From NCBI GenBank assembly GCA_021513695.1, contig CP084166.1, forward strand, positions 2,048,001-2,112,000: a stretch of DNA of 64,000 nt, given 5' to 3'. Of this stretch, positions 3,001 through 51,376 are shown piece by piece. The notes under the pieces are model-generated. The model was not told the DNA's origin. It did no database searches and saw only the letters and a program-made list of their open reading frames with translations. Made by a program: the position numbers and the translations under genes. Numbering within the stretch: position 1 is the stretch's first letter; every line of letters starts with the position of its first letter. Source of the stretch: Candidatus Heimdallarchaeum aukensis. GTDB lineage: Archaea; Asgardarchaeota; Heimdallarchaeia; Heimdallarchaeales; Heimdallarchaeaceae.

Positions 3001-6000
3001 TATTCCTTATCGCGGATTCAAAACCTACGGTTCGGAACCTAAACCAGAAGAGACTCATCACCCACGTTTCTCTAGTTATGTGGACTTCAAATATAGTCTA
3101 GTTATGTTTTGGGGATTAATCTTAGGTAATAGTGCAGGCTGTGGAATACCTAAAAATTCTGTCTCTCTGTTTAGCGAGAGTGAGAGAACTGGAAAACTCT
3201 TGATGATTGACGAATTATGGGATAAAGCTATTAAACACTGGAACTTGGCAGATAAAAGTAGAATAGATGATCCTAGCGAATATTTGCCCTATACTGACCG
3301 AGCTGTAGTAGACAAAATACTGTTTGACGCCAGAGTAAGAGGAGATGAAGCTATGATCGACTGGATAACAAATGAAGATTATAGTGCTGAGGCTTATTAC
3401 ATGCAACCCTATGGAGTGGATTATTCGATCTATTACTGGTTGAAGGCTTTTACTATTCAACAAGGATATGACCCTTATGCTATCAAGGTTTACACCATTG
3501 AAGAGATGAATAGTCAAGAGAGAGAAGATTTTGACGAAAATTATTTTGTTATAGGCGTTCCTGTTTCCACAATCGAAGACCAATATTTAGAATATAACTG
3601 GTTTGTAAGTCTAGATAAAGAAACACGTGTGCCCACTTCTGCTACATCACAACTAATAGACTTTATCCCTCTTGTATTCGGTCAAAGTTCTAATCCACAT
3701 ATAAGAACAATGATGAAAATAATTAAAAGATTAGGAAATGCAGCAAAAGGAGAAAATTTCGGTTATAATACTTTTAGCATGAGTGAATTCAGCTTAATCG
3801 TTACTTTAGAATTTTTAGTTAATCTTGTAGATATAGGCGCTTTACTTATTGATATCAGAGATGCCTATATAGGAGCTACTCCTTTCATACGCAAAATGTC
3901 GCTCATGCAAATACCAATGGATATACTAGATTTGTTCACTCCAGGACCTTTTTCTCTCGTAGGAAATACAATGAATAAAATTTTCAAATCTATAGTCGGA
4001 GACGTTACCTTAGAAGTAAATAGGATAACAAAAACATTTAATTTACTAGATATTGTACAAAATTTCCCAAAAGGAGAGTGGAAAAGCATTGCTCGAGCAG
4101 CAGGAAAATCAGAACTAATGATCTGGATAGTTGGAGCAGCACAAGTGACTTACCGTTTCTCTAAACTAGCCAATCAATTCTATCAATGGTTCTTCTTCCT
4201 CCCGCAAAAGATTTTCATGAGTAGTTTACAAATAACTTTAGGGTCATTCATGATATTTGCCTCTAAAATGATTTATGCCATCAGAAGAATGGATATCGAA
4301 GAAGCAATGTTGTTAAACATTAAAGCGCAAAAATACTTCAACCAAGGACTAGATGATACCGCTAAAATGACAAGAGCTATATTAAGCCATCCAAAAATGC
4401 TAGCAAGATTTGGAACTGAAGAACTTATAGAACGAGCAAATATAGTAGCAAAATATTACATGAACATTATTATAAAGAAAGTAATGGAATTGGAAGCAAC
4501 ATCAAAAGCAATACTAGAATCGGTTGAAAAGTCACGCTTCTATGTTATGATGGCCTTAAGATATGCTACACATATGTACATGAACACCCCAGGAGGAGTA
4601 GGTATACACTTCTCTCCCAATTTAATTGATAATGAGAAAGAAACTGAAGGAATAAGACATTTCAACACCGTGGATAATATTTTGCCAAAATTAGAATATG
4701 AAATAGCAATGTATTACTGGAAGCATGAATATCTAGCGGATGATGAAAAAATAAAAGAGTATAATAGTGAAAAATTCAATTTCAGAGATGTAGAAAGCGC
4801 AAAAATACATATAACTATAGCTTTTTCATCTATTGCTGCAATACATTCGACACCAGAATCATTCCAAAGATATAAAGAACTACTAGAATACACAGATAAG
4901 AGGTTAATAGAAATAAAAAATGAAAAGGGTGAAAATCTAGAGTATACACCTATATGGTGGATTTTACATTTGCCTGTTGATCCCTCGCTACAAAAACTAG
5001 CCCTTAGCCACATATTTGATGAATCACCTGCAGTTTCACTGCTTCTAAAAGTTCTAATGGTAGAGAAAGGTCTTAACGAAGACTTATTAGAAAATAATAT
5101 CGACGATATAGATGAATACAATAAAGAAGTTCATTCCATTTTAGATCAAATTTTATCTTCTTCCCCCCTAAATATAAGTCATAAAGTCTTTATCCTTGAA
5201 AAAGATGAAAAAGGGAATCATATCTGGAAAGCAAGAATTTTAGATTTGTTAGGGCAATCTGAAGGATCATTAACTAAGTTAAGGACACGAGATGAATATA
5301 TTAAGTGGTCTGTAATCGGTAGAACAGGAATAGACTTGTTAGGCCTTTTCGGAAGTGAAGAATTAAAAAACTATTTTCCCAAAGGAGTAAGAAATGCTTT
5401 AACTGCTAGAAATGATCAAACTTCAATAATCTATGAGCTTATATGTATGGGATTATTAGATTTTAGATTTTATACAGATGATAAAAATGTAAAGGATCAA
5501 TTAAAAATTGATTTTCCAGAGCATGACTTTGAAAAAGAACCCAGTATTAGCATTGCTGAATTAGCTAAAAAATATAGTAAATATGATATTCTAGAATTAT
5601 TTGAAAAAAGTAATTTTATTAGACAGACTCTTATAAGTAATGGAGTAGACGGATTAATACACAGTACAAAAATAGGAAAGTCTCTTTATTCTGTTAAAGA
5701 TTCAACGGGAATATTCAATAAAGCTAATTCAAAAAATATTTTATACTCTGTAGCAGCTGAAAATGCATATATAGGTCATGGAAGTGTTATTTATTATTAT
5801 GATAAGCTACAAGGTGATATTATCACGGATATAGATAATAAATTGATATACAATGCTAGATATTATGATCCTACAGCTTCAAAATCACCTAAACCTTTTG
5901 TTCCAGGCGATGCAATATTACTCTATGATTCCAATGTAAATCGTTATCTGTTTTTAAGAACTAATTTTCCTGAGGACACTATGCTAAATCAAAATCAGAA

Positions 6001-8641
6001 ACTAGATGAATATAGTGGTTTTAAAAGAGAAATTAACGTGTTTTGGTTTCAAATAAACAAAGATACAAATGAGGGAGAGATAGTTTATGATACATTAGAA
6101 CACTATTGTTATGAAAATGAAAAACTGAAGGAAGGAATAAAAGTTGTTGGAACGGAGGATATTTTGCAAGAGGTAGATAAGTTTCATCCAAAGAGAAATA
6201 AAATAAGAAGTAGTCAACCTATAATATCAATAGAAGCAAAGCAAAATGGAGGGAACATAGATTACGTTGTCTCAATGGATGAACAACTTCCTTTATTTAG
6301 GTTTATAGGTGGAGATTATTCAACTGCAACAGAAAAAGACATCAATTTTGCTAGTTTTCTTTACCCAAGAAAACATTCCAACGATATTGTTTTCGGATTG
6401 CAAGATGATAACTTAGATTTTATCGATGAAAAGGGTTTATGGCCTATCCATATGGGTTTAAGCCCAGGAAGGTTTACATACAACGTGCAAAACATATATT
6501 TAGATGAGATTAATTCAGCAAAAGCGTTATTGGATAAATTAGATGAATTAGATAACTTGCCTGTAGTAGAAGTTAAAACAAAGGATAATGAATATATAAC
6601 TCGACCAGCAACAGTTCAGGAAGTAAATCAACAGAGAGTATATGAGTTAATTAGATGGTACTCTACAAGTCAAGTGTATACTTATTATGTGTCTAGTTTA
6701 AATAAAGAAAATAAAGCATTTTTGTGCAGAGCATATCTAGATGATTGGAATGCAGCTAAATCGTTAGGTGAAATCATAGAAATAGCAGAAGATACTAATG
6801 GAAATCTATACCAGAAATATGGTTATGAGAATAAACAAGAATATCTAACCTTTAGAATGAATGTTATTCAAACAATAATAAACGAACAAGAACAGTTCTA
6901 TAAATACAAGTTTAAAGATGAAAGTGATTTAACAAAAGAAGAAAAGTTGGTAATATTTCTAAAAGAACAAAAAGAATTTTTTGAAAGATTACATAATGAC
7001 GCTGCTAAAATAGAGGCATTTCAAGAACCATTTTTTTCAAACTTGAGACTAGACATTAAAGAAGTCGATACATATAATGTACTTAATTATCGCAGTTTAG
7101 AATCGTCAATTGAATTACTTTTATTAAATAGATTTGACTCGTATAATAAGATACACTTATTCGAAGGAGATGTACCTTTTTCAAGAAACCCGATGAAATT
7201 CGGTTTCGATAATGTAATTGTCCAAATAGGTACGAGAGCATTCATAAACAAGGTCAAAGAAGAGGGAATATTAGATTTTGATGAAGATAAAAATTCAGTA
7301 TTAGAACTAGCTAATAAAGTATTTAAAAGAAAAACAGTTATAAAACCATTAATCCGCGGACCAATAAAAGCAAAATCAATTGCTTTTCTCCAACATGAAG
7401 AAACAATGGCTAAACTGAACAATTATAAAACATTGCAAAAAATATCCAAAGAAGAAATAAGGCTCTGGAAACTTTACAACAAAAAATTAGATAATGAAAA
7501 AGGCCATTTGACTGTAGAGCAACTATACGAAATAGAAGAAGAGTTCAACAATATAAATGGAAAAAATATAGTAGGAAAACAAGGAGCAGGGATGACAGTA
7601 ATAGAAGATGGAAACACATATGTTGTAAAAATATACAGTCTCATCAGTGATTTAAGATATAATAACAAAATTCATGCAGGTAGTGAGGCAAATAAGTATG
7701 ATATTGCAGAAAGAGTGTTGGGACTAGCACAACACATAAAGTACGTAGCAAAGGAAGGAAGAATATACATTAATTATGCAATGGCAAACATTCTTTATCT
7801 GATAAAAACACTAACAAACGGTAAAATGGAAATAGATGACGTCCAGAATCTAAGGGACCTGGGAAATCCAAAGGAATTAGAAGCTATACTAGTAAATAAT
7901 TTAGGGGAAGAAAGAACAAAAGAAATACTAAATATTTTAGAAGAAGTAACCATAAGAACGAAAAGAAAAATAAAACAAGGAAAAGATTATTCCATAGAAA
8001 ATATAGAAAAAGGACAATCGTTGGCTTTTCAAATTGGATATGTGGATCTGAAAAATATAACCCCTGAGGTAAGAGGAAAATTAAGGCTACAAGGGATGTT
8101 ATTGAGAGAAATCTTGATGTTACTGGATATAATATATGGACTATATTATACAGGAAGAAATTATATGAAACGCCTAGATATTAATTTAGCGCAAACAACA
8201 GTAATTTTCGAAAAAACAACGGAAGAAGGCAAAACAATACTAAAATTAAAAGACGTAAAAACAAGCACAGAACAAGAAATGAATGGAGAGTTCATATCAT
8301 CACTGAACGATTTCGACCAAAAAACAGCATCAATAATAGAAAAACTGGCTGAAACTAAATATTCATCAGTATTTGGACCAGAATTTATGACTAGAGAACA
8401 ATTAAGAAAATTGGTAGATGAAATAATAGAAGAATATGAGAGTATACTAAAATTGAAAATAAGAAAATTCAATGAAATATTAACTCAAGACGATATGGAA
8501 GTAGAACTAGTAGCAAAGAAATTCAAAATAGAAGAATTGCTAAAAATGCTAACACCTAAAGGATTATGGTCAATGTACGAGCAAAAGAAAAGAAATAATG
8601 AAAAAAGAGGACAAACAAAAATAACAGACTTCCTAATTTAA
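2..8641 (+). CDS. Giant hypothetical protein, 5'-partial: frame is open from base 2 to the window edge, so over 2879 aa. Probable surface/membrane-associated protein.
   Basis: Single uninterrupted ORF. I translated bases 2-253 by hand and found no stop, so the gene starts upstream of the window. No catalytic motif recognised. There is a D-x-D-x-N-G-D-G-x-x-D calcium-binding-like motif (DWLDTNGDGLEDT) and a hydrophobic stretch mid-protein (around nt 3800-4300). Cys-poor, Asn/Asp/Tyr-rich. Confidence 0.7.
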   Translation, partial: LVGVGESTEQYIATISREEKTITYSAILSSAEEQEQWKYFYISLYQLARHIPKELLVDNYSNGNKEVDLLDENYPVSGIISDAKMVVNYEGSYVEKIIQLEKGANQNLYISDLKSTITNIHSAYPYENALSSLPEEIKWKKYDVPFDGYIPLDNVYLDDFDGSSYYIYDVVVYVDASTYSKVHLTVETEGSFVLSNRYSIILQKMGFSNEVVSTVFSAQQGYTPLYLHVVFPKTAFNQNIRIQYISNGGVAISAENNREGDAISEWLISTPFYSEKNEDTVDYLNFISQVTPMEGERFEKRVVDSEGFTHTETIEFSEFTFPGFCPILDFVPHAVPSGYSVILTTTLDFAKSLNTSLVLLLNKESGITIQSLLWDETPLLYINEGVFNEIDSDLENGMITIPLNSEGLTVNSLFSPKENNPNEYGFIENDPDYNFHFSSSDPYSIKTSSVNPDSVILNNKGIHRIVIQLTFPSPYNTDFGIYLENVDDSVRTVLSPSDKAIDFHAIAQKNFIQFENDLHQPQTLAQLEKNENTLFKSRYFKDDYGQYHSYRIYSLGFSDEYTLDKGKKWKIYDGDTDDSNDVIYESTAHYNWKHVIGKMNFAIVIDEGTPQVLQLPFNFLVGYMVFCDWLDTNGDGLEDTCAPYIGLADPLDASSTYDDVKKGVVYNTEEEKKISYDVTDEQQAELKNLTVRQSLISSLSTTVITKTEETIPLSYTSDEIAAIQNNGLTLDRYLHSLIENDYLTYSEDIARVEITISSSNNKEIDLAYDYDKEILFTHSVDNATGEEEKIVYDFRYDCFSVLTPDALANDNYRVDFYTFNNKLSLYDTDLYKLKETPNSYGLLDDPQTLSPMVVLENYNYEIKETVNSLDSKDEEILNNSPTTIVDAFVQGLSLSQLSVEMYDAEIEMDYYSLDLFYSVFFNEYLTLQQFFYSQETLNNNQNYQYYPTGTIQFAKWISSILNSYIIQQSDKLFDEYQNRTSRYDSEKKAIAAMSFLLDLIIPYRGFKTYGSEPKPEETHHPRFSSYVDFKYSLVMFWGLILGNSAGCGIPKNSVSLFSESERTGKLLMIDELWDKAIKHWNLADKSRIDDPSEYLPYTDRAVVDKILFDARVRGDEAMIDWITNEDYSAEAYYMQPYGVDYSIYYWLKAFTIQQGYDPYAIKVYTIEEMNSQEREDFDENYFVIGVPVSTIEDQYLEYNWFVSLDKETRVPTSATSQLIDFIPLVFGQSSNPHIRTMMKIIKRLGNAAKGENFGYNTFSMSEFSLIVTLEFLVNLVDIGALLIDIRDAYIGATPFIRKMSLMQIPMDILDLFTPGPFSLVGNTMNKIFKSIVGDVTLEVNRITKTFNLLDIVQNFPKGEWKSIARAAGKSELMIWIVGAAQVTYRFSKLANQFYQWFFFLPQKIFMSSLQITLGSFMIFASKMIYAIRRMDIEEAMLLNIKAQKYFNQGLDDTAKMTRAILSHPKMLARFGTEELIERANIVAKYYMNIIIKKVMELEATSKAILESVEKSRFYVMMALRYATHMYMNTPGGVGIHFSPNLIDNEKETEGIRHFNTVDNILPKLEYEIAMYYWKHEYLADDEKIKEYNSEKFNFRDVESAKIHITIAFSSIAAIHSTPESFQRYKELLEYTDKRLIEIKNEKGENLEYTPIWWILHLPVDPSLQKLALSHIFDESPAVSLLLKVLMVEKGLNEDLLENNIDDIDEYNKEVHSILDQILSSSPLNISHKVFILEKDEKGNHIWKARILDLLGQSEGSLTKLRTRDEYIKWSVIGRTGIDLLGLFGSEELKNYFPKGVRNALTARNDQTSIIYELICMGLLDFRFYTDDKNVKDQLKIDFPEHDFEKEPSISIAELAKKYSKYDILELFEKSNFIRQTLISNGVDGLIHSTKIGKSLYSVKDSTGIFNKANSKNILYSVAAENAYIGHGSVIYYYDKLQGDIITDIDNKLIYNARYYDPTASKSPKPFVPGDAILLYDSNVNRYLFLRTNFPEDTMLNQNQKLDEYSGFKREINVFWFQINKDTNEGEIVYDTLEHYCYENEKLKEGIKVVGTEDILQEVDKFHPKRNKIRSSQPIISIEAKQNGGNIDYVVSMDEQLPLFRFIGGDYSTATEKDINFASFLYPRKHSNDIVFGLQDDNLDFIDEKGLWPIHMGLSPGRFTYNVQNIYLDEINSAKALLDKLDELDNLPVVEVKTKDNEYITRPATVQEVNQQRVYELIRWYSTSQVYTYYVSSLNKENKAFLCRAYLDDWNAAKSLGEIIEIAEDTNGNLYQKYGYENKQEYLTFRMNVIQTIINEQEQFYKYKFKDESDLTKEEKLVIFLKEQKEFFERLHNDAAKIEAFQEPFFSNLRLDIKEVDTYNVLNYRSLESSIELLLLNRFDSYNKIHLFEGDVPFSRNPMKFGFDNVIVQIGTRAFINKVKEEGILDFDEDKNSVLELANKVFKRKTVIKPLIRGPIKAKSIAFLQHEETMAKLNNYKTLQKISKEEIRLWKLYNKKLDNEKGHLTVEQLYEIEEEFNNINGKNIVGKQGAGMTVIEDGNTYVVKIYSLISDLRYNNKIHAGSEANKYDIAERVLGLAQHIKYVAKEGRIYINYAMANILYLIKTLTNGKMEIDDVQNLRDLGNPKELEAILVNNLGEERTKEILNILEEVTIRTKRKIKQGKDYSIENIEKGQSLAFQIGYVDLKNITPEVRGKLRLQGMLLREILMLLDIIYGLYYTGRNYMKRLDINLAQTTVIFEKTTEEGKTILKLKDVKTSTEQEMNGEFISSLNDFDQKTASIIEKLAETKYSSVFGPEFMTREQLRKLVDEIIEEYESILKLKIRKFNEILTQDDMEVELVAKKFKIEELLKMLTPKGLWSMYEQKKRNNEKRGQTKITDFLI

Positions 8642-8664: not shown

Positions 8665-8768
8665 TGGTGCGTCAACCGGGAATTGAACCCGGGCCGTCGA
8701 ATCTCTTCTTGAGGCTTCTAGACGCCATATAATGGAAGTCCGACGTACTACCACTATACTATTGACGC
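8665..8768 (-). tRNA. tRNA, probably Gly(TCC), with about 30-nt intron at canonical 37/38 position and encoded CCA
   Basis: Reverse complement folds as acceptor GCGTCAA/TTGACGC, T-arm CCGGG-TTCAATT-CCCGG, anticodon stem TCGGA/TTCGA (two G-U pairs) with loop CTTCCA|intron|A, then discriminator A and CCA. Anticodon assignment is tentative. Confidence 0.6.
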
Positions 8769-10326: not shown

Positions 10327-12684
10327 TTGTTCAGAACTTTATTCTTTTTTTGTTCCTTAAGCGTAACCTTTTTTATTTTTCCTCAATACATACTCTGGAT
10401 AGCAAAATTGACCTCCTATATTCCTTTATCTCTTTCTGATGTTGTGCATAAAATAAGTATCTATGAGTCTGAATTGAATTTATTTAATAGTTCCAAGAAA
10501 AAAAACTTTGGTATCTACTATACCCCTGACTTTATAGTTGATTATATTGTTTCTAACGCTTTTCTTAGATATTTATCGAAGTTTGACAGCGATATTCCGC
10601 AATTAGTTAAGAAAATCTTGTCTCTTAACTCAAACCTCTCAAATCATGAAAAAAAGATTCTAATATATTTACACCAACATATTTTTCCAAATATAACTGT
10701 CTGTGATATATCGATGGGTTGGGGTGTCTTCCTCATCCATACATTTGATTACTTATTTTTACTGCGTAAAAACGTATTTATTCTTTTATATTCTCCTTCT
10801 TCTTCTGAATTAGAAGAGGAAAGCAAAAAAATCGCTATAGATATCATTCAGAATAGTCTTTTTGGTGCTGATCTTTCCGAAAAGGCTATAGAATTGGCTC
10901 AATTAAAGTTATTTAAACAAGTAATGGAAGCTCTAAATTGTTCTAATATTAAACTTCCTCGTGCTAATTTTAGACAAGGAAATAGTTTACTAGGTTTTAT
11001 TAATAAAGAATATATTAATGGAAAGGATTCTACAAACTACTGGGTTGAACTTTTTTTATCTAAATTTAAAAAGAAAACATTAATCACAGAAGTTTATAAC
11101 TTTTTAAGAAAACAAAAACTAGTTCATTGGAAATCATTTTTTCCTCAATTGAGAAATCGAGAAGGTTTTGATATTATCGTAGGAAATCCCCCCTACATCA
11201 ATGTTAAACGTTTACCACAAATTGAGAGATATATTTATGCAAGCATTTATGAAACTTATAATTCCAACGGTGATCTATCTAACGTTTTCTGGGAACGTGC
11301 ATTATCAATATTACGTCCCTCTGGAGTTGTTTCTTTTATAGTTCCTCGATACTGGTTAGAGGGTAAAGATAGCAATAAATTGAGATATTTTATCCAGAAG
11401 AATTCTAGAATCCTTGAAATCATGGACTTCCAAAGTAATAGGAGTTTGTTTTCTGAGAGCGAAAAAAAGTTGGGGGTCGATGTTTCTATTGTAACTTTAG
11501 AAAAAAGAAAAGAAAAAGGATTGTTTGACGTTTATATTTTACAAAATTCTGAGAGAATAACCTCTGTCAATAAACATAATTTTCTTGTTAAACAAATCGA
11601 TCAAGAATCCCTCTCCTCTTCAAGATGGAACTTTAATGTTCCTAAACTGGTTGAATATCTCGATGAACATAGTTGTTTAACACTTGGGGGAGATAAAGAA
11701 AATAATATTCCTGGTGTGTGTTATATCGGGAAAGGTTGTTCAACAGGTAATAATTCAATATTTACTTTAAAAAAAATTAAAGATAATATATTTGAAGGAT
11801 ATAAAAAAGTTAAACTTTCTCTCCCTGAAAATGAACAAAGAGTTTTAAGAAGATTAATTAAAAATAGTGATATTACCCGCTATTTTCTTAAAAAACAAGA
11901 GCGATATTGGATATTTCTCAAAGACAAGTCTATTTCAGATTACCCTATGATTGAGCAGTATCTACATAAGTATATCGAGAAACTCAAAGAAACACAAAAA
12001 AAATATGGTAGTAAGAACTTCTTTGACTATGCAGCCTATCGCTCTTTAAATTTAATTGATAGTGTTCCAAAAATCGTAACGCCATATCAGTCTTCAATTA
12101 ATAGATTTGCTTTAGTTAAAAGTAAAGCGCCCCTAACAATTAATGAAACAGATGTTATCACTCTTGTTATCAAACAAGAAATGCGTTCTAAGTTGGACTG
12201 GTTTTTTCTTCTTTCTCTTCTAAATTCTGAACTTTTACATTATTATATTAAACACAGAAACAAAAAAATTTACTATCTCTACGATTTTAGAACAAGTCAA
12301 ATTACCACTCTACCTATTCAAGTCTCTCACAACCAAAAAGTGGTAAGTTTCTTTTCTGAATGTATGTACAGAGCACAAGCACTTCAATTGGATGATAGAC
12401 TATATATGCAAGTCAGATCTAAACTCGAGTTTATAATAAATTCTTTGGTTTTTGAAATTTATCTTAGAGAGAAACTATCTTCAGAATTAGAAGAAGTGTT
12501 GCAAGAAATTGTCTTTACGCAGAAACCTGAAGTCATTAATTTTAAACGCGAAAATGAATTTCTTTCAAAAATATTGTCCTCTCCTACAATTATTAAACAA
12601 CTAAGACAGATTTACTCAAATAAGGAAGTAACCTCTGTAGTTAAAGATTTAAGTTTACCCTATTCAAAATTTATTATAAAGTGA
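10327..12684 (+). CDS. Gamma-class N6-adenine DNA methyltransferase (Eco57I/TaqI-like, with TaqI-type C-terminal specificity domain). No nuclease domain, apparently orphan.
   Basis: Motif X (FGIYYTPDFIVDYIV), motif I-like (DISMGWGVFL), motif IV (IVGNPPYI) in gamma-class order. About 450-aa C-terminal TRD-like region. Start codon uncertain (first ATG used). Confidence 0.75.
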   Translation: MFRTLFFFCSLSVTFFIFPQYILWIAKLTSYIPLSLSDVVHKISIYESELNLFNSSKKKNFGIYYTPDFIVDYIVSNAFLRYLSKFDSDIPQLVKKILSLNSNLSNHEKKILIYLHQHIFPNITVCDISMGWGVFLIHTFDYLFLLRKNVFILLYSPSSSELEEESKKIAIDIIQNSLFGADLSEKAIELAQLKLFKQVMEALNCSNIKLPRANFRQGNSLLGFINKEYINGKDSTNYWVELFLSKFKKKTLITEVYNFLRKQKLVHWKSFFPQLRNREGFDIIVGNPPYINVKRLPQIERYIYASIYETYNSNGDLSNVFWERALSILRPSGVVSFIVPRYWLEGKDSNKLRYFIQKNSRILEIMDFQSNRSLFSESEKKLGVDVSIVTLEKRKEKGLFDVYILQNSERITSVNKHNFLVKQIDQESLSSSRWNFNVPKLVEYLDEHSCLTLGGDKENNIPGVCYIGKGCSTGNNSIFTLKKIKDNIFEGYKKVKLSLPENEQRVLRRLIKNSDITRYFLKKQERYWIFLKDKSISDYPMIEQYLHKYIEKLKETQKKYGSKNFFDYAAYRSLNLIDSVPKIVTPYQSSINRFALVKSKAPLTINETDVITLVIKQEMRSKLDWFFLLSLLNSELLHYYIKHRNKKIYYLYDFRTSQITTLPIQVSHNQKVVSFFSECMYRAQALQLDDRLYMQVRSKLEFIINSLVFEIYLREKLSSELEEVLQEIVFTQKPEVINFKRENEFLSKILSSPTIIKQLRQIYSNKEVTSVVKDLSLPYSKFIIK

Positions 12685-12708: not shown

Positions 12709-13146
12709 TTAAGTCAATAATTTGCCTAATTTAATAGCTGCTCTTTCTAAATCTAAAAATAGTAAACCAAGTTTTGTGTCTGGTGTAGTGGAAACGGTGA
12801 TAACTGCATTTTCTCCTGCTTGCATTGTAACAATATATCCATTATCTCCTTCAATAAGAATCTTCTTTACTTTTCCTTTTCTTAATTCTGAAACCACACG
12901 TTCCCCTAGAGACAAGCTTGCTGCAGTCATTGCTGAAATGCGAGTTTCATCAATGTTGTCCAACATTAATGAAGCTATGGGTAACCCTTCGACAGAAACA
13001 ACCGCGATATCTAAAATCCCTGGGGACTTGAATCTTAATTCACTTATACAATCAGTTATTTCTTCACTAATTTTGTTTGTTAGAATTCCAAAAGACAATA
13101 TTTTCACTCCTAATTTTTCCTTTGATTGTTCTCCTTTTTTATACAA
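12709..13146 (-). CDS. Roadblock/LC7 (MglB-like) domain protein
   Basis: 145 aa; pattern DIAVVSVEGLPIAS ... AASLSLGERV ... ILIEGDNGYIVTMQAGENAVITV typical of the Roadblock/LC7 fold. Confidence 0.7.
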   Translation of the reverse strand: MYKKGEQSKEKLGVKILSFGILTNKISEEITDCISELRFKSPGILDIAVVSVEGLPIASLMLDNIDETRISAMTAASLSLGERVVSELRKGKVKKILIEGDNGYIVTMQAGENAVITVSTTPDTKLGLLFLDLERAAIKLGKLLT

Positions 13147-13434: not shown

Positions 13435-15549
13435 GTGACTAAGCTTGAAAAACTATTAAGGCCTGAAAGCGTAGTAATTATTGGCGCTTCTTCTGATGAA
13501 AAGAAAGTTGGTTATGCAGCATTAAAAAATATGATTGATTGTGGGTTCAAAGGAAGGTTATATGCTGTTAATCCCAAAGCTGAACGCTATAATTATGAAA
13601 TTTTGGGTGTCAAGTGTTATTCTCGTGTAAGCGATATCGAAGATACAATTGATCTAGCAGTAATTTGCATTCCTGCACGGTTTATTCCTGCAACTATTGA
13701 AGAATTAGGTGGAAAGAAAGTCCCATATGTTGCTGTAATAACTGCTGGTTTTAAAGAAGTTGGAGAAGAAGGAGCAAAACTTGAAAAGGAACTAGTTGAA
13801 CTTGTGAAAAAATACAACATGAGAATGGTAGGGCCGAATATTTTAGGTATAATAGATACTATTGCACCTATAAATGCAAGTTTTGCAGAACAAACTCCAA
13901 TAAGAGGAGATATTGCATTTATATCCCAAAGTGGAGCTCTTTTAACGGGTATTCTAGATTGGAGTAGAGCAGAGGGAATAGGCTTCTCATCTTTTATAAG
14001 TATAGGTAATAAAGCAGATCTGGACGCAACAGACTTTATTGAAGCTTTAGGTGAGGATAAGCATACAAAAGCAATATTGGCTTATTTGGAAAGTATAAAT
14101 CGAGGGGAAGAATTCATTAAGATTTGTTCTGAAGTAACGAGGACAAAACCTGTCCTTATTATTAAATCAGGAAGATCAAAAGCTGGAGCAAAGGCAGCAT
14201 CTTCACACACAGGAAGTATGGCTGGTGCAGATACAACTTATGATGTTGCTTTTGAAAAATGTGGTGTAATAAGAGCTGATGATGCTGAAGAATTGTTTGA
14301 TATGGCATTTTCATTCAGTTGTATGCCTATACCAAAAGGAAATAGAATAGTAATAATTACTAATGCTGGTGGACCTGGAATTCTGGCAACTGATGCTGCC
14401 GAAAGAGAAGGGTTAGAATTAGCAGAGATATCCCCCGAGTTTGAGGCAAAATTAAGAGAATTTCTACCTCCTGCATCAAGTTTCAAAAATCCGATAGATG
14501 CCTTAGGAACAGCACAAGGAGAGGATTATGGACGGATAATAGAACTAGCATGTAAAGAAGAAAATATAGATGGAATAGTCGTTATTTTAACGCCACAAGC
14601 TATGACCGAAGGACAAGAAACTGCAGAAAGAATTGTGGAGATGCATGAAAAATATCCTGAAAAACCTATCATTGCAGTTTTTATAGGGGGAGAATCATTA
14701 GGCCCCGCAATATATTATTTGAAGAAACACAAAATACCCACATTTACACTTCCAGAGAGAGGGGTTGGAGCTATGGCCGCTATGGCAAGATATGCTAAAA
14801 TAAAAAACAGGCCAGAAGATGAACCTATACCTGAAATAGAAGTAGATAAACAGAGAGTAGAAGAAATATTCAAGAAAGTAAGGGCTGAAGGTAGAAAAAC
14901 GTTATATGGCACAGAAGCAAAAGAAGTGGTAAAGGTATATGGAATAACTACTCCTGCGGCTAAATTAGCAAAAACAAGCGATGAAGCTAAACAAATCGCT
15001 AAAGAACTAGGTTTCCCTGTAGTTATGAAGATAACAGGGGAAGGAATTATGCATAAAAGTGACATCGGAGGAGTAAAAGTAGGTATAAAAAATGAAGAAG
15101 AAGTAGAAAAAGCTTTTACTGAAATAATGGAAAATGTAAAGAAACATTATCCAAACGCAGAAAGCCTAATAGAAGTGCAATATATGGCTCCTCTAGGAAG
15201 AGAATTAATAACAGGAATATTACAAGATCCTCAATTTGGTCCACTAGTAATGATAGGATTAGGAGGAATATATACCAACTTCCTTAAAGATGCAGCTTTC
15301 GGTTTAGCTCCACTAAGCTACAAAGAAGCTGAAATTGTGTTAAGAAAAACAAAATCTTACACATTGTTAAAAGGAGTAAGAGGAGAAAAACCTTCAGATA
15401 TAAAGGCAATAGTTGACACTATGGTGAAAATATCACTGCTTGCAAGAGATTTCAAAAACGATATTAAAGAGATGGACGTAAACCCATTCTTCGCTTATGA
15501 AGAAGGAAAAGGAATCTCAGCAGTAGATGTAAAAATAGTACTTAATTAA
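13435..15549 (+). CDS. ADP-forming acetyl-CoA synthetase (NDP-forming acyl-CoA synthetase, fused alpha+beta)
   Basis: 704 aa, GTG start. CoA-binding/succinyl-CoA-synthetase-like N-terminal half (VVIIGASSDEKKVGY, MVGPNILGII) and ATP-grasp C-terminal half (GFPVVMKITGEGIMHKSDIGGVKVGI). Confidence 0.85.
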   Translation: MTKLEKLLRPESVVIIGASSDEKKVGYAALKNMIDCGFKGRLYAVNPKAERYNYEILGVKCYSRVSDIEDTIDLAVICIPARFIPATIEELGGKKVPYVAVITAGFKEVGEEGAKLEKELVELVKKYNMRMVGPNILGIIDTIAPINASFAEQTPIRGDIAFISQSGALLTGILDWSRAEGIGFSSFISIGNKADLDATDFIEALGEDKHTKAILAYLESINRGEEFIKICSEVTRTKPVLIIKSGRSKAGAKAASSHTGSMAGADTTYDVAFEKCGVIRADDAEELFDMAFSFSCMPIPKGNRIVIITNAGGPGILATDAAEREGLELAEISPEFEAKLREFLPPASSFKNPIDALGTAQGEDYGRIIELACKEENIDGIVVILTPQAMTEGQETAERIVEMHEKYPEKPIIAVFIGGESLGPAIYYLKKHKIPTFTLPERGVGAMAAMARYAKIKNRPEDEPIPEIEVDKQRVEEIFKKVRAEGRKTLYGTEAKEVVKVYGITTPAAKLAKTSDEAKQIAKELGFPVVMKITGEGIMHKSDIGGVKVGIKNEEEVEKAFTEIMENVKKHYPNAESLIEVQYMAPLGRELITGILQDPQFGPLVMIGLGGIYTNFLKDAAFGLAPLSYKEAEIVLRKTKSYTLLKGVRGEKPSDIKAIVDTMVKISLLARDFKNDIKEMDVNPFFAYEEGKGISAVDVKIVLN

Positions 15550-15645
15550 TTAAAATAAAGAATTTTAAATAAATTCTCTTCTTTTTTTGTTTTTTATTTA
15601 TAAAAGCAAATAAATTTTAAATAATACCATAAAAGTAGGAAAAAC

Positions 15646-16335
15646 ATGGTGCTTTTAGAGATTCTTGTACTCCTTGTAGGATATATCTGTGGCTCGATTC
15701 CCGTAGGTTTCTTAATAGGAAAAATAGGTTATAATATTGATGTAAGAAAACATGGTAGTGGAAATATAGGAATGGCAAATGTAATGCGTCTATGCGGAAA
15801 AAAAGCAGGAATAATGACAATGATAGGTGATATGGTAAAAGGAACAATTGCCGTTCTAAGTGGGAGAATATTAATATGGACAAAAAATTTTGAAGGATTA
15901 GGAAAAATAGGACAAGTAGAATTAACAAATGAAGGGTTATTTCTGTCATTAATAGTCTTTACAACAATAATAGGGCATAGTTTTCCAATATGGTTAAAGT
16001 TTAAAGGAGGGAAATCAGCAAGTGTGGGAGGAGGAGCAATATTAGGAATAAACCCAATAGCATTTGTAATAATAATGAGTTTATGGATTGTTATACTTAA
16101 AAAAACTAAATATACTTCACTTTCAAATTTAGTAGCAGGTATGCTCTATCCTCCATTGTTATGGGTGTTCGCGGGAACTGATCCTTTCTTTAACAACAAT
16201 TGGCAAGCAGCAATAGTAGGAGCAATATGTTTGTTGTTTGTAATCTGGAGACATAGGGAAAATGTGTCAAGGTTAATAAAAGGAACAGAAAGAAAAATTG
16301 GACAAAAAGAAAAAATAGAAGAGAAAAAAGACTAG
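15646..16335 (+). CDS. plsY: Glycerol-3-phosphate acyltransferase PlsY family (acyl-phosphate:G3P acyltransferase), bacterial-type
   Basis: YICGSIPVGFLIGK ... HGSGNIGMANVMRLCGKKAG ... GDMVKG matches PlsY signature blocks. Multi-TM. Confidence 0.8.
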   Translation: MVLLEILVLLVGYICGSIPVGFLIGKIGYNIDVRKHGSGNIGMANVMRLCGKKAGIMTMIGDMVKGTIAVLSGRILIWTKNFEGLGKIGQVELTNEGLFLSLIVFTTIIGHSFPIWLKFKGGKSASVGGGAILGINPIAFVIIMSLWIVILKKTKYTSLSNLVAGMLYPPLLWVFAGTDPFFNNNWQAAIVGAICLLFVIWRHRENVSRLIKGTERKIGQKEKIEEKKD

Positions 16336-16431: not shown

Positions 16432-17178
16432 ATGAGAGAAAAGAATATAATGAAGAGAAAAATCTCAAAGTCAATCAGTGCACTAGAAATCATAGGTATA
16501 ATAATAGTTGCGTCAGCAGCAACAATATTGATAGTAACAAACATTCAACTAGTAAAAGTAGAAGAGATTTTTCTTGAAAAAGAGTACATAAAAGGAGAGA
16601 ATGTGACATTAAAAGTCCAAATAAATAAAAAAATAGAAGAGATCTCAGAAATAGATTATTGTCTGGTGGGGATAAAATCAGAAAATTACTCTTATGAGGG
16701 AGTGTTCAAAGCAAACATAGAAAAAATAGAAATAGATAATTTAAAAACAAAAAGAACAAACATCACAGTATCATTAAAACCATTAATTAAAAATGAAAAT
16801 GGATATTATGCATTAAACGTAGGAAATTATGAAATAGAAAGCCTAGAGTTAAAAATAGGAAGAAAAATAATCAAGCATAGATTAAATGCAAATTTCGTTA
16901 TAAAACATGGAGAAGAGGAAGAAAGAATAAAAAATGGAAATTTTGAACAAGAAGGAGATTATTGGATAATAGAATACAATAAAGAAAAATTTACACTAAA
17001 TTTTAAAGAAAATGAGTATACAGATGGAAAAGCACTAATCTTAAGAAAAAATGAGGAAAAGACAGAAACAAATCAAACATCTATATTGACTATGACACAG
17101 AAAATTAAACTAAAAGATATACACTACCTAGAAATGGATGTAAAAGTAATAAGTGAAAATGAGAGTAAAGTAAATTAA
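16432..17178 (+). CDS. Secreted or surface protein with pilin-like (class III-like) N-terminal signal/anchor
   Basis: N-terminus is basic (KRKISKSIS) followed by ALEIIGIIIVASAATILIV, Glu about +5 from a possible cleavage site. Remainder hydrophilic and K/E/N-rich. Confidence 0.5.
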   Translation: MREKNIMKRKISKSISALEIIGIIIVASAATILIVTNIQLVKVEEIFLEKEYIKGENVTLKVQINKKIEEISEIDYCLVGIKSENYSYEGVFKANIEKIEIDNLKTKRTNITVSLKPLIKNENGYYALNVGNYEIESLELKIGRKIIKHRLNANFVIKHGEEEERIKNGNFEQEGDYWIIEYNKEKFTLNFKENEYTDGKALILRKNEEKTETNQTSILTMTQKIKLKDIHYLEMDVKVISENESKVN

Positions 17179-17180
17179 GT

Positions 17181-18032
17181 GTGAAAATTAACAATAAAGA
17201 AAGAAAACATGTGCAAGAAATAGATGAAAAAAGCAAAATGCATCAAAAAATAATTTTTGGAGAAATAAAAGAAGAAAATGAAGAAGCAAACATATCAATA
17301 GAAATAACAACAACAGAAGAAATAAACAAAGATTTTGAAATAATAATTGACAACGTGTCAATAAAAGCTTATGAAAAAAAGATTTTCATAGCAATATTAG
17401 ATAATAACTGGAAAATAGCACAAGGAAAGGTAATAAGAAACGAGACAGAGATAGCAGTAGAAAGAGCATCAAAATATTTCGAGAAGAACCTGGGTATAAA
17501 ACTAATACCACTGGTAAGAGTAGAGTGGAAACTAGAAAGTGAAAACAAAATAATAAGCTTAGATGAGATGCATGAAAAAGCAATAAAAGATGCAGAAAAA
17601 TTGTTGGGATTAAAACAAGAGTGGATAGTAGAAAAAGGAAGATCAGAAAAAAATAATGGGTTCGATATGCTAAACGCTTTCACAAATAAAACAGGAGAAC
17701 ATTTCGGATTTATATTCGGAGGAGAAAATGCAGCCTTCCACTTCGCTCAATCAAATTACCTGCAAAAAGCACTAAATGAAGCAGGAATGGGATACATACA
17801 AGTAACAGTGATAGATGAATGGGCAGAAAGCCTGGTACAACATGAAGTAAGCCATATATTCGGAGCAAAAGATAGAGACAGTAGAGAGTATGAACCAAGT
17901 GTGATGACAAAACAATTGACAACAGAAGAAGTAATAAAAGCATTTATAGAAGGAAAAATGTGGTTACAATGCAATAATTGGTTAATAGAAGACATGAAAA
18001 TAATGATAGAAAATGTAGAACTATTCAAATAA
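17181..18032 (+). CDS. Putative zincin (Asp-zincin/metzincin-like) metallopeptidase domain protein
   Basis: GTG start 2 nt after the upstream stop. C-terminal HEVSHIFGAKD (HExxHxxGxxD) followed by EPSVMT (Met-turn-like). No signal peptide of its own. Confidence 0.5.
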   Translation: MKINNKERKHVQEIDEKSKMHQKIIFGEIKEENEEANISIEITTTEEINKDFEIIIDNVSIKAYEKKIFIAILDNNWKIAQGKVIRNETEIAVERASKYFEKNLGIKLIPLVRVEWKLESENKIISLDEMHEKAIKDAEKLLGLKQEWIVEKGRSEKNNGFDMLNAFTNKTGEHFGFIFGGENAAFHFAQSNYLQKALNEAGMGYIQVTVIDEWAESLVQHEVSHIFGAKDRDSREYEPSVMTKQLTTEEVIKAFIEGKMWLQCNNWLIEDMKIMIENVELFK

Positions 18033-19797: not shown

Positions 19798-19998
19798 ATA
19801 GAGTTTTTGTCTTGTTGAAATGATAGAATTAAATTGATTTTTAATATTTTTGTTTGTCGTGTCCTCTTATTAATAATGATTTTCTTTATATTCTGTTATT
19901 ATCTTACAGAGATAAATTTAAAAAATAAATGTTAACTCGTTTCTTAATCCATATAGAAAAACTGCTCGTTTCCTACTTTGTTCATTTGCTTAAAATTT

Positions 19999-20084
19999 CG
20001 CGGGGATTGCCGAGCGGTCAAAGGCGCTGGACTTAGGATCCAGTCCTTAGTGGTTCGAGAGTTCGAATCTCTCTCCCCGCACCA
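19999..20084 (+). tRNA. tRNA-Leu(TAG), long variable arm, CCA encoded; integration target
   Basis: Acceptor GCGGGGA/TCCCCGC, anticodon arm CTGGA-CTTAGGA-TCCAG, T-arm GAGAG-TTCGAAT-CTCTC. 3' end duplicated 2.8 kb downstream. Confidence 0.85.
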
Positions 20085-20095
20085 TTTCTTCTTTT
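20057..20095. repeat. 39-bp direct repeat, copy 1 (attL-like): last 28 nt of tRNA-Leu plus 11 nt
   Basis: gagagttcgaatctctctccccgcaccatttcttctttt, identical to 22887-22925. Confidence 0.85.
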
Positions 20096-21080
20096 ATCTT
20101 TATATATTTCCTTTTCCTTTTTTCTTTATGGTTGCTTTTTCTCCTACTTTTTCTGTTATCGATTCTTTCTCTTTTCTTCACGACCCTCAATTTGTTTTTT
20201 TACTTCAGACTTTTATTGATTCTTCCCCTGACTTTTTTTCGTTTCTTTCTCTTCTTTCTTCCTCTTCTCCCTCTTCTCTTTCTTCTTTTGTAAGGGACAT
20301 TTTTTTACTTATTTCTTTTGATGATCCTTTTTCTCTTTCTTCTTCCTCTTTTCATTTTTTTGATTCTCATTTTAATTGGAAATCTTTTCTTTCCTTTTTC
20401 CTTGATTCTTTTTCTTCCCGTAAATTTTCTCTTTGCAATTTTTCTTTATTTTATGCTCATTTTTCTTTTTTGCATTTTTCTATTCCTAATTTTTTATCTG
20501 ATTTTGCATTCTTTTTTTTATCTGATTTAGATTTTAATTTTTTATCTTCTTCCTTTTTCAGTTCTTTTTTCTCTTTTGAATCTTTTTATGATTTTTTCTT
20601 TTCTTATTTTGATTCTTTTTTACCTTCCTATCGTCTCCTTATGCGTCATCGTTTTAATTCTTCTCCTAACCATTTTTTTCCTCCTTTTCTTCCATTCCTT
20701 CGTTCTGAAGAGGTTAGCTCTTATTTTAAGTCCTTTCTGTATATTTGTGGCTTTGATAAATCTGTTTTCGGTTTTGGTTCTTCTCGTGCTAAGGTTGATC
20801 CTCGTCAATTTGCTGAGTCTTTTCAAACTTCTTGGATTAAATTGCACTTTCATTTAGACAAAATGCGTTTTCCTTTTACTCTTTCTTCTACTCGTGTTCT
20901 TTCTCTTTATCATCCTGGTCGTTATGTTTCTTCTGTTAATCCAAGTAATGGTTTTGACGATCTAATTGTTTTTTCTTCCTCCTCTTCCATTCCATCCTCT
21001 CTTTCCTCTTCTCCTTCTTCTCTTTCTTCCTTTTCTTCTCCCGTTTCTCCCTGCTTTACTATTTGTGTTATTGAGCAAAA
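20096..21080 (+). other. About 1-kb polypyrimidine (C+T) tract on + strand
   Basis: Plus strand is overwhelmingly T/C with only scattered purines. Open in several frames on both strands because stop codons need purines (or T on the complement). Confidence 0.8.
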
Positions 21081-21081
21081 A

Positions 21082-22881
21082 ATGAACCATTTAGACGTTA
21101 AGCGTTTAGATAGTCCTTCTTCCTCTTCCGATTTTACGCGTTATCTCTCTTACCTTGCTAAAACCCACTTAAATCCCTTTATTCTTCTTTTACAAGCGTT
21201 TCATTATCCTGAAAAAGATAGACTTAAATTGTCCTCTCTATTGTATGATCGCTCTTTAACTTATTCTAACTCTGTTGGATTAGACTTTTTACGTAAAATC
21301 ACGAATGGTGATTTTCTATCTTCTCTTAAACTAATTGAACCTTCTTTAGATGATCAAACTATCAATAATATTCTTCGGGGTTCTATTATCCAGCACCAGC
21401 TTATTTCTTTGATTAAGTCTGGTTTTTGTTTTAAATTGGCTTTTGTTGATGGTTATTATACCGTTAAAAAGAGGTATCCTGGTGACCTGGTCTCTTCTGT
21501 TATATGTTATTATAATTGTTTAAATGGTTCTTGCGTTGAAATCCATTTTCCTTCGTCGCTATTTGAAATAAGAATAGATTCTAGGGGTCATTTTCTTGTA
21601 CCTCAGTACTCTGAATCTCAGATTTCTTCATATGCAAAGACAGAAAACGAGCTTATGGCTTATCAGGAACTCAACAATCTATTTAACACTTTACGGAGCG
21701 ATATGATTTTTAATGTAAATATTTTGTCTCTCCCTCCTTTTGAAATTGTAAAAAAAGTTAATTTATATCAAAAAAAGATTCTCTTTTTTTTACTTAATTC
21801 TAGACGAATTGCTGATTTAAGTATCTTTAACGATGGTTTTGTTAAATCTTATTTGGAAATTTTTACTTTACCAAAAACAGCTCATCGGATCAAGAGATAC
21901 TTATCCTATATACACGATTCACTTTCAATTTTTCCCTATTCGTTTTATCAGCAGTGGAATGCTCCTTTTGGCGATAGACTAAAAAACATGTTCTCTGGTT
22001 CTTTTAGTCGTGATACCCTTCTTTGTAAGCGTTTTAAAGAAAAGCTTCTTGAGTTTATTTTATCCTCTGATTATGATTTTTCCGAAATGCCTTTAGAATT
22101 TATTGAAACTAAGTTACGTCATTCACCTGATATTCAAATTTTTTTAGATTGCTATTTTAGTCAGTTTGCTCTTTATCCTGACGGTAATTTTTTACGGTTT
22201 AAACATAATAAAATTTCTTTGAAAGCTCTTGCTTTTTGGGATGAGACCAACAATCAATGGTTTTCGCTTAACAAGAAGCGTTTTTACATTTTATTGAACT
22301 TTGAAGATATTTTAGCTAATATAAGTAAGGAAGTGTCTTTTAAAGTAACAAAAAATCTTTTGCTTTTTCCTATTAAATTTAGTTTAAATAAACGCACAGG
22401 GCAGTTATCAGCTCTATTTAATACTGATTTTACTAACACTGAAGTAAACAGAATTTGGGTTGCATATCTTAAAAAATTGAAAGGAATGGATCTTTCCTTT
22501 GAGATTTTGTCCTCTTTTTCTTATGGTCAACGAAATAAGCGGAGTGGAATTGATTTATTCTATAACTGTAACCAAAAAAAGCTTTCAATATTGTTGGCAA
22601 TATTATCAGAAACTATTAAGTTGTGGAGTTTGGTTAAAGAACTTGTCCTTAACGTTGTTTATAAAAAATTAGATTCTGAAATGGATAAAATTATCTTATC
22701 TACCAAAGGAGATAAAATTGTTCTCAATGGCAAGCAATACAAAATGGTCTTACTCAATTACAATGAAAGTAATTCAAGGGTTAGGTGGTCGTTTAAACAC
22801 TACCTATTTCCTGTTGAAGGAACAATTATTGATGATTTTGTTAAAAAATGTTATTCTATTTATACTGATTTATTTTCTTAG
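21082..22881 (+). CDS. Hypothetical protein of the tRNA-Leu-inserted element (conservative start; in-frame extension to ATG 20128 would add an S/F/L-rich low-complexity N-terminus)
   Basis: Normal-complexity ORF (MNHLDVKRLDSP...) ending exactly at the right repeat. No integrase/recombinase motifs seen. Confidence 0.55.
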   Translation: MNHLDVKRLDSPSSSSDFTRYLSYLAKTHLNPFILLLQAFHYPEKDRLKLSSLLYDRSLTYSNSVGLDFLRKITNGDFLSSLKLIEPSLDDQTINNILRGSIIQHQLISLIKSGFCFKLAFVDGYYTVKKRYPGDLVSSVICYYNCLNGSCVEIHFPSSLFEIRIDSRGHFLVPQYSESQISSYAKTENELMAYQELNNLFNTLRSDMIFNVNILSLPPFEIVKKVNLYQKKILFFLLNSRRIADLSIFNDGFVKSYLEIFTLPKTAHRIKRYLSYIHDSLSIFPYSFYQQWNAPFGDRLKNMFSGSFSRDTLLCKRFKEKLLEFILSSDYDFSEMPLEFIETKLRHSPDIQIFLDCYFSQFALYPDGNFLRFKHNKISLKALAFWDETNNQWFSLNKKRFYILLNFEDILANISKEVSFKVTKNLLLFPIKFSLNKRTGQLSALFNTDFTNTEVNRIWVAYLKKLKGMDLSFEILSSFSYGQRNKRSGIDLFYNCNQKKLSILLAILSETIKLWSLVKELVLNVVYKKLDSEMDKIILSTKGDKIVLNGKQYKMVLLNYNESNSRVRWSFKHYLFPVEGTIIDDFVKKCYSIYTDLFS

Positions 22882-32835: not shown

Positions 32836-33028
32836 ATTTTATGAGCCAACTTTCTTTTCTTTCTTTTTTCTTTCTTTTTCTTCTATTGATTTTTTGCTTG
32901 ATTTTTTCTCTAATACATTTATAATTTTTTTTAATAACTAGTAAAGAGTTTTTTTAATTTTCATTTTTTCTGATTAATAAATTTGAACAAAACAGACCAT
33001 TTAAAAGTTCATTTGCTATTTTTATTTT

Positions 33029-51375: not shown

Positions 51376-51376
51376 T

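Follow-up and report, generated by a model that had tools for sequence, protein, structure and literature searches.

Among the described proteins closest to the one considered here are the bacterial PlsY acyltransferases (YgiH/YneS), for which the roles of individual residues have been defined by structures of the Aquifex aeolicus enzyme (aaPlsY; PDB 5XJ5-5XJ9) and by mutagenesis (PMC5700162). In Firmicutes, a free fatty acid bound by FakB (a DegV protein) is phosphorylated by FakA, and the acyl-phosphate so formed serves as a substrate of PlsY (PMC9136124; PMC10146087). This FakA/B-to-PlsY coupling works in vitro with bacterial enzymes, and in the coupled assay PlsY of B. subtilis and of E. 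coli takes both glycerol-1-phosphate (G1P) and glycerol-3-phosphate (G3P) (Rieche et al., 2026; PMC13400652). In this study, we analyzed a plsY gene in a stretch of 64,000 nucleotides from Candidatus Heimdallarchaeum aukensis (contig CP084166.1, positions 2,048,001 to 2,112,000; the whole stretch is called the window below). A preliminary description had recognized the gene, at positions 15646-16335 of the window, as a bacterial-type PlsY in an archaeal gene context.

The occurrence of PlsY in Asgard genomes is already known, in agreement with the statement of the preliminary description that such genes are reported for some archaeal lineages. PlsY has been listed in Lokiarchaeum GC14_75, Heimdallarchaeota LC_2, and Thorarchaeota SMTZ1-83 (Coleman et al., 2019; PMC6431249); for Asgard PlsY, that paper builds on Villanueva et al. 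(2017). The gene plsY has also been described in Loki- and Thorarchaeota (Manoharan et al., 2019; PMC6737245). Neither PlsX nor PlsB was detected in archaea by Coleman et al., who inferred transfers from Bacteria; PlsC was reported in Heimdallarchaeota LC_2 and Lokiarchaeum (PMC6431249). The plsY/plsC genes of Asgard archaea have recently been pointed out as well (Rieche et al., 2026; PMC13400652). The window PlsY belongs to the same family and the same superphylum as these proteins and adds another member, in a clade distinct from that of the LC_2 type.

We lean, with somewhat better than even confidence, toward the interpretation that this enzyme would use acyl-phosphate to acylate glycerol phosphate, and that a Fak-type kinase would supply this acyl-phosphate from free fatty acids. 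It would be a salvage or minor-lipid pathway and not a PlsX-fed one.

The PlsY gene: identity, inheritance, and active site

The gene under study is:

15646-16335, + strand: PlsY-family acyl-phosphate:glycerol-phosphate acyltransferase with a seven-transmembrane fold, 229 amino acids, ATG to TAG

Both PlsY signature motifs named in the preliminary description, CGSIP (residues 15-19) and HGSGNIGMANVMR (residues 36-48), are present, far beyond chance expectation. Assignment to the family was confirmed by profile searches and by structure prediction. The open reading frame (ORF) matches Pfam PF02660 (G3P_acyltransf) with an E-value of 1.2e-48 and 165.7 bits (cut-off 24.1) over profile positions 1-164 of 164, and the NCBIfam PlsY equivalog TIGR00023 with 177 bits (cut-off 137.2) over positions 1-196 of 196. 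Its sole sequence match in the PDB is aaPlsY (5XJ5, E 8.3e-24). The AlphaFold2 model, built with 50 homologues, scored a predicted local distance difference test (pLDDT) of 94.7 and a predicted template-modeling score (pTM) of 0.91; a Foldseek search of the PDB with this model returned solely PlsY at E <= 0.001 (five chains of 5XJ5-5XJ8; target-normalized TM-score 0.85-0.89, root-mean-square deviation 2.3-2.8 A). Homology to bacterial PlsY thus extends over the full length, with the seven-transmembrane fold and identical phosphate-clamp residues. Unlike aaPlsY, to which it is ~26-29% identical, the window protein has a longer charged C-terminal tail and a ~17-residue insertion (residues ~79-95), modeled as a beta-hairpin between transmembrane helices. 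Close relatives already carry the NCBI name PlsY. We are highly confident that the ORF is a native, intact PlsY.

Its gene content identifies the window as that of an Asgard archaeon. It carries genes for Spt5-NGN/KOW, L11, L18Ae, prefoldin, FtsY, and EMG1/Nep1, together with ZPR1, LSM, Roadblock/LC7, an Arf-family GTPase, type III RuBisCO, and a split AcnX; archaeal genes flank plsY on both sides for tens of kb. The GC content of plsY (0.329) and its GC content at third codon positions (GC3, 0.217) match the window means (0.336 +/- 0.032 and 0.227 +/- 0.023), its codon usage lies inside the range of similar-sized genes, and GC content is uniform (~0.32) across the window. A second strain is represented by the independent metagenome contig L184, which is 95% identical in nucleotide sequence over 3 kb; there the PlsY ORF is also intact and the order of the upstream gene, plsY, and the downstream gene is the same, so that a chimeric assembly is practically excluded. 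More than 19 lineages, drawn from many assemblies, have orthologous PlsYs embedded in an archaeal context. Bacterial contamination or a chimeric contig, for which nothing speaks except the bacterial affinity of the PlsY family overall, is therefore effectively refuted, as the preliminary description had argued from the flanking genes.

The best PlsY matches are 49-68% identical, and all those with a taxon name are from Heimdallarchaeota or Heimdallarchaeaceae; identity then falls to about 35-42% for the best bacterial PlsYs. A search of 1.84 billion representatives clustered at 50% identity returned 17,692 family members, among which the whole Heimdall clade is one representative (276 bits; next best 151 bits). 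A scan of genome contigs gave 80 loci, only one of which is from an archaeal species representative (L001); the window's own genome was not among them. In a neighbor-joining tree (195 sequences, 202 columns, 200 bootstraps) the gene is placed with Heimdallarchaeaceae-type PlsYs, which form a monophyletic core clade (196/200 and 194/200 bootstraps). The nodes joining this core clade to other Heimdall groups received 32/200 and 1/200 bootstraps, and these deeper nodes are unsupported; the deep nodes of this short protein were also poorly supported in the trees of Coleman et al. (PMC6431249). The nearest neighbors in the tree are P0053, P0130, and P0267, followed by a group with P0157, and their clusters are named 'Heimdallarchaeota archaeon' and 'Kariarchaeaceae archaeon'. 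A profile of the P0157-type group retrieves ~52 sequences, including Heimdallarchaeota LC_2 (P0301) and several Kariarchaeaceae; the window clade is ~36-40% identical to this LC_2/Kariarchaeaceae-type clade. The window PlsY is 68% identical to its orthologue in L081 and 57% to that in L001, values at the median of the flanking genes, which argues for vertical inheritance within the Heimdallarchaeaceae-type lineage under ordinary purifying selection. The gene is therefore not a recent import from bacteria.

Residues of the active site were mapped by alignment to aaPlsY, and the motifs are located as follows:

15751-15789, + strand: motif 1, HGSGNIGMANVMR, with Ser38, Asn40, and Arg48 kept (aaPlsY S35, N37, R45) and Ala44 in place of Thr41
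15973-16029, + strand: His111 (aaPlsY H92) and motif 2, the phosphate-hole loop FKGGKSASVG (residues 119-128)
16111-16128, + strand: YTSLSN (residues 156-161), with Asn161 at the position of aaPlsY Ser142
16246-16275, + strand: motif 3, WRHRENVSRL (residues 201-210), with His203 and Asn206 kept (aaPlsY H177, N180)

The clamp for the phosphate of G3P is fully kept (S38, R48, K123, and N206; aaPlsY S35, R45, K104, and N180), and so are His203, Asn40, His111, Gly121, and Gly122 (aaPlsY H177, N37, H92, G102, and G103). Each of these nine residues is kept in at least 30 of 31 core-clade sequences. The ORF encodes a genuine integral-membrane acyltransferase of the PlsY family, which is probably active and which we take to be catalytically competent.

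Three parts of the site depart from the bacterial pattern (positions below follow aaPlsY numbering). In motif 2, Ser124-Ala125-Ser126-Val127 stand where aaPlsY has Gly105-Val106-Ala107-Thr108. The core-clade pattern of this phosphate-hole loop is K-S-A-[AS]-V, with Ser at position 105 in 28/29 sequences and Ala at position 106 in 29/29; bacterial PlsYs have Gly at position 105 in 145/165 and Val or Ile at position 106 in 147/165, and Ser at position 105 is a natural alternative in 3.4% of sequences. The phosphate hole uses backbone amides (PMC5700162), and its function may be retained despite the loop changes. The second change is at Thr41, which in aaPlsY binds the carbonyl of the acyl-phosphate; the T41A variant retains 4.75% activity (PMC5700162). 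Thr41 was found in 79/79 named bacterial genomes and Ala41 in none of them (0/79), whereas Ala41 occurs in 23/29 core-clade sequences (24/30 in the first alignment) and in 51/52 of the Kari type. A separate group of ~200-aa homologues, one member of which is labeled Rubrobacteraceae, shares Ala41 in the motif GSGNIGMANV, so that this residue probably does not prevent normal PlsY function. The third change is at Ser142, which contacts the 2-OH of G3P in aaPlsY and is 52.6% conserved in the family (PMC5700162). This contact residue is replaced by Asn161 in the window PlsY, although Ser is not strictly defining for the family. Asn142 is present in 29/29 core-clade sequences, in 51/52 of the Kari/LC_2 type, and in 9/9 of a third Heimdall group; elsewhere it was seen in 1/67 lower-scoring matches and in 1/79 named bacterial genomes (Patescibacteria). 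The LC_2 protein (P0301) carries the same Ala41 and Asn142.

The replacements Thr41->Ala and Ser142->Asn and the loop changes are lineage signatures and not oddities of one sequence. Because two of the residues that contact substrates are not those of bacterial PlsY, it would be unsafe to presume bacterial-like, G3P-specific chemistry, and an altered preference for the donor or for the glycerol-phosphate backbone is possible. While keeping the PlsY scaffold, the Heimdall/Kari enzymes might prefer G1P, the backbone of archaeal lipids, or another phospho-activated acyl donor, and would then yield heterochiral or chimeric lipids. We regard this alternative, which overlaps with our favored interpretation, as distinctly unlikely. 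The lineage-specific changes affect two of the few side chains in contact with substrates, namely the carbonyl contact and, at Ser142, the contact at the stereocenter of G3P, the core-clade loop is distinctive, named bacteria hardly share the changes, and bacterial PlsY already takes both G1P and G3P (PMC13400652). However, the whole phosphate clamp and His177 are unchanged, Ala41 also occurs in the ~200-aa group with its Rubrobacteraceae-labeled member, and Ser142 is only about half conserved in bacteria.

Candidate source of acyl-phosphate

By homology, PlsY would form lysophosphatidic acid by moving the acyl chain from acyl-phosphate onto the free primary hydroxyl of glycerol phosphate. The acyl-phosphate would most likely come from a fatty-acid-kinase-type (Fak) system, because archaea lack PlsX. 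In such a system, a DegV/FakB-like protein would bind the free fatty acid and a short Dak2/FakA-like kinase would phosphorylate it, and an Est30/monoacylglycerol-lipase-type esterase, encoded beside plsY in most relatives, may free the fatty acids. The pathway would thus salvage or incorporate free fatty acids and yield a minor acyl-lipid pool, and would not build a bulk membrane of bacterial type.

The evidence for this interpretation comes from related genomes. In a Heimdallarchaeota metagenome-assembled genome (L089, 6002-8738, + strand) three co-directional genes stand in a row, with gaps of 109 and 72 nt. The first (6002-6946) encodes a protein of 314 aa with Dak2 and FakA-like_M domains, the second (7056-7928) a DegV protein of 290 aa, and the third a PlsY of 245 aa. 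The row is repeated on the contig of P0053 (JGI 3300042731). Both rows lie in archaeal contexts; the neighbors in L089 include EMG1, RPA-like, and HypD genes. The three protein families of the FakA/FakB-PlsY pathway of Firmicutes (Dak2 kinase, DegV fatty-acid binder, and PlsY) are all encoded in L089, side by side and in a common direction. Neighborhoods were counted in 19 core-clade lineages, de-replicated at 90% PlsY identity. A DegV gene lies at most 6 kb downstream of plsY in 5 of the 10 informative lineages; the core-clade DegV scores 216 bits against TIGR00762 and 121 bits against the FakB1 equivalog, below the cut-off of 350. The short FakA-like protein (~313 aa) belongs to a populous clade (74-98% identity) labeled Heimdallarchaeota or Asgard group; it is 43% identical to its counterpart in a second Heimdall lineage and ~40% to full-length FakAs of Firmicutes. 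In that second lineage (L093) the FakA-like gene follows another Hydrolase_4 gene. As a counterpart of the window esterase this gene was rejected: it is a distant paralogue (27% identity over 62 aa), and its adjacency was given little weight. In the literature we found no paper linking Fak to PlsY in archaea and no description of a fakA-like-degV-plsY row; most subscription journals lay outside the search.

The alternative best known from bacteria is the canonical de novo route, in which PlsY, as the committed enzyme, joins PlsX, PlsC, a G3P dehydrogenase, and the fatty-acid synthesis machinery in supplying bulk ester lipids or a mixed membrane. The preliminary description had linked the gene to bacterial ester-lipid synthesis. 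The PlsX-PlsY-PlsC route is not supported: although PlsC is reported for Heimdallarchaeota LC_2 and Lokiarchaeum (PMC6431249), genes for PlsX, PlsC, GpsA/GlpA, acyl carrier protein (ACP), and fatty-acid synthesis are absent from the ORFs of the window and from the archaeal PlsY neighborhoods examined, so that neither the PlsX nor the PlsC of the bacterial initiation system accompanies PlsY there. The archaeal PlsY also differs from the bacterial one in having no known PlsX partner, with no PlsX or PlsB found in archaea by Coleman et al. (PMC6431249), and the split AcnX among the archaeal genes of the window fits normal isoprenoid synthesis. We consider the canonical route very unlikely here.

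Several observations weigh against a Fak-fed pathway. The Heimdall FakA-like protein consists of Dak2 and FakA-like_M only and lacks the C-terminal PF13684 domain; it thus differs from the three-domain FakA of Firmicutes, since bacterial matches of 530-550 aa carry PF13684. Further differences from the Firmicute system are the DegV score under the FakB1 cut-off, the location of the Fak genes outside the window, and the lack of a PlsX that passes acyl groups to ACP. Neither DegV nor Dak2/FakA was found in the 64-kb window by Pfam searches of its ORFs or by tblastn with two DegV and two FakA-like queries, and its ORFs include no PlsC and no gene for forming glycerol phosphate. In this strain the ancestral plsY cluster is dispersed. 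The sub-branch to which the window belongs (L081, L083, L001) has no DegV near plsY, and no FakA-like gene was found in any of the core-clade flanks examined; the PlsY of the Heimdall lineage with the full fakA-degV-plsY row is only ~37% identical to that of the window. The esterase adjacency carries weak weight, since alpha/beta hydrolases are common. The natural Ala44 reproduces the T41A state, which lowers aaPlsY activity to 4.75%. Coleman et al. judged that archaeal PlsY is unlikely to serve membrane synthesis (PMC6431249). Finally, the lipid analysis of a cultured Lokiarchaeial Asgard archaeon, the sole one cited in PMC13400652, reported archaeal lipids only.

Gene neighborhood and other features of the window

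The genes adjacent to plsY, and those whose orthologues are adjacent to it in relatives, are:

13435-15549, + strand: fused ADP-forming acyl-CoA synthetase (ACD), the direct upstream neighbor (TIGR02717 573 bits, ATP-grasp_5, Succ_CoA_lig)
15575-15604, + strand: oligo-T tract past the ACD stop codon, followed by the TATA-like box TTTATAAA (15597-15604), read from the sequence
16432-18032, + strand: membrane-anchored Reprolysin-like metzincin (HEVSHIFGAKD), ~520-530 aa, directly downstream of plsY
29280-29513, + strand: stand-alone AsnC/Lrp ligand-binding (RAM) protein, 77 aa (PF01037)
41291-42058, - strand: Est30/monoacylglycerol-lipase-type alpha/beta hydrolase (PF12146, Hydrolase_4)

The ACD gene ends 96 nt before plsY. 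ACD enzymes carry an enzyme-bound acyl-phosphate intermediate, and ACD was considered as a coupled acyl donor for PlsY and rejected. Only the window and the 95%-identical strain L184 have the two genes side by side; the L001 orthologue is found ~6 kb downstream of plsY (with ~7 kb separating the gene midpoints), and none of the other neighborhoods contains one. The oligo-T tract and the TATA-like box also separate the two genes. The box TTTATAAA, ~45 nt 5' of the plsY ATG, suggests that plsY has its own promoter, although such matches are common in AT-rich DNA. The adjacency of ACD is a rearrangement product and is functionally uninformative. Of the proximity to archaeal housekeeping genes pointed out in the preliminary description, the archaeal context thus stands and the upstream neighbor tells nothing.

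The ancestral cluster consists of the genes for the esterase, the RAM protein, PlsY, and the metzincin-like protein, and it is scattered in the window. The esterase orthologue is divergently oriented, upstream beside RAM-PlsY, in 9/14 informative lineages; in the window it is displaced by ~25 kb and abuts a 747-aa gene that follows the cluster in L081. Its nearest PDB sequences are Est30 (8ILT, 1TQH; E 1.8e-28) and thermostable monoacylglycerol lipases (5XKS, 3RM3). The RAM orthologue is directly upstream of plsY in 13/17 informative lineages and is displaced by ~13 kb in the window; the window protein is 86-91% identical to the product of the gene directly upstream of plsY in L001, L081, L084, L085, and L091. 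The RAM protein keeps this 86-91% identity across lineages in which PlsY is 52-68% identical. The most tightly conserved neighbor of plsY is the metzincin gene, which is immediately downstream in 12/15 informative lineages; in L085 the two genes share 8 nt. A 1-nt deletion in an A-run near 17172 breaks the window copy into two ORFs, 16432-17178 and 17181-18032, which correspond in alignments to the N- and C-terminal halves of single genes in L081 and L085; in the 95%-identical strain L184 the gene is intact and lacks the deletion. A Reprolysin_3 match was detected in 5/5 members, the Pfam matches to Reprolysin_3/5 being weak. A profile search of the PDB gave no match for the metzincin-like protein, and from profile searches no functional link to PlsY or to lipid metabolism could be inferred.

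The esterase-RAM-PlsY-metzincin arrangement ancestral to the window clade contrasts with a RidA-PlsY-tubulin-like arrangement in the Kariarchaeaceae/LC_2-type loci L087 (8638-12492) and L088 (8653-12589, - strand). There, a RidA gene lies upstream of plsY, and two or three tubulin-like genes and a pyruvate kinase gene are conserved downstream, unlike in the window clade.

These neighborhoods bear on a further alternative, that the gene has no role in lipid synthesis and is a horizontally acquired relic or has been recruited to a non-membrane function. The distribution of PlsY in archaea is patchy and a membrane role was considered unlikely by Coleman et al. (PMC6431249); the cluster is dispersed in this strain, its linked downstream gene is frameshifted, and T41A is strongly deleterious in aaPlsY. 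Nevertheless, the nine catalytic and binding residues are kept over at least 19 lineages at 47-68% identity, plsY diverges at the same rate as neighboring housekeeping genes, synteny with the lipid-related DegV, esterase, and FakA-like genes is conserved, and the ORF is intact both here and in the second strain. We judge the absence of a lipid role to be improbable.

Further features of the window are:

10327-12684, + strand: Eco57I-type restriction-modification methylase/endonuclease fusion, 785 aa, between the Spt5 and Roadblock genes
12709-13146, - strand: Roadblock/LC7, a eukaryote-like signature protein
31897-34276, + strand: IF-2B-like gene followed by type III RuBisCO (TIGR03326 419 bits, below the 497 cut-off)
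34500-34757, + strand: LSM, a eukaryote-like signature protein
37039-38648, - strand: split AcnX, large and small subunits (NCBIfam match to cis-3-hydroxy-L-proline dehydratase, far under the cut-off)
39405-40028, + strand: ZPR1, a eukaryote-like signature protein
48664-53783, - strand: NuoE-like 2Fe-2S protein, NuoF-like FMN/Fe-S protein, and molybdopterin formate-dehydrogenase-like subunit with NuoG-type Fe-S domains
61884-62822, + strand: Arf-family small GTPase, 312 aa, with an Arf domain (residues 9-176) and a long C-terminal extension

The IF-2B-like gene probably encodes a ribose-1,5-bisphosphate isomerase; the pairing of this isomerase with type III RuBisCO is typical of the archaeal pathway of AMP/nucleoside salvage. 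The split archaeal AcnX is presumably the phosphomevalonate dehydratase of the archaeal mevalonate pathway, in which case the region would also serve isoprenoid lipid synthesis. The three-gene cluster of NuoE-like, NuoF-like, and formate-dehydrogenase-like subunits is syntenic with L084, L085, and L091. Two tRNA genes of 101 nt (8668-8768, - strand) and 123 nt (31608-31730, + strand) were matched by Rfam and missed by ARAGORN in bacterial mode; because Rfam detects both and ARAGORN neither, they probably carry archaeal introns. A giant ORF of 2795 aa at the left end of the window (254-8641, + strand) has no Pfam domain at E <= 0.001. An ORF of 967 aa (19978-22881, + strand) has no Pfam match, and its first ~30 codons overlap a tRNA-Leu gene (20000-20084). 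Its N-terminal half is rich in Ser, Phe, and Leu and of low complexity, and the true start and the N-terminal part are doubtful; its coding strand is pyrimidine-rich (GC skew -0.25, AT skew -0.40), unlike the other genes on the + strand.

Possible acyl lipids in Heimdallarchaeia

The main published objection to a lipid role of archaeal PlsY is that there would be no source of acyl-phosphate, as archaea are without PlsX. A Fak-type supply would answer this objection, and the row of fakA-like, degV, and plsY genes, with the recurrent DegV and lipase-type esterase neighbors, offers a concrete candidate for the source. The three-protein Fak-PlsY system could be reconstituted with the existing coupled assay, with G1P compared to G3P (PMC13400652). 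Beyond the addition of one more member to the family, what deserves further work is the linkage to Fak and the Ala41/Asn142 signature.

A more far-reaching proposal, which we hold to be rather unlikely, combines these two elements: Heimdallarchaeia would possess a vertically inherited pathway of truncated FakA-like protein, DegV, and PlsY, in which Ser142->Asn and Thr41->Ala tune PlsY to G1P or to mixed substrates. If so, the pathway would yield acyl-ester or chimeric glycerolipids beside the isoprenoid ethers.

Descent of the eukaryotic lipid enzymes from these genes is not implied. To our knowledge, eukaryotes have no PlsY, and we know of no published tree that specifically links eukaryotic with archaeal lipid-gene sequences. 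A working Fak-PlsY system would bear instead on the question of whether fatty-acyl glycerolipids can be made by the archaea most closely related to eukaryotes.

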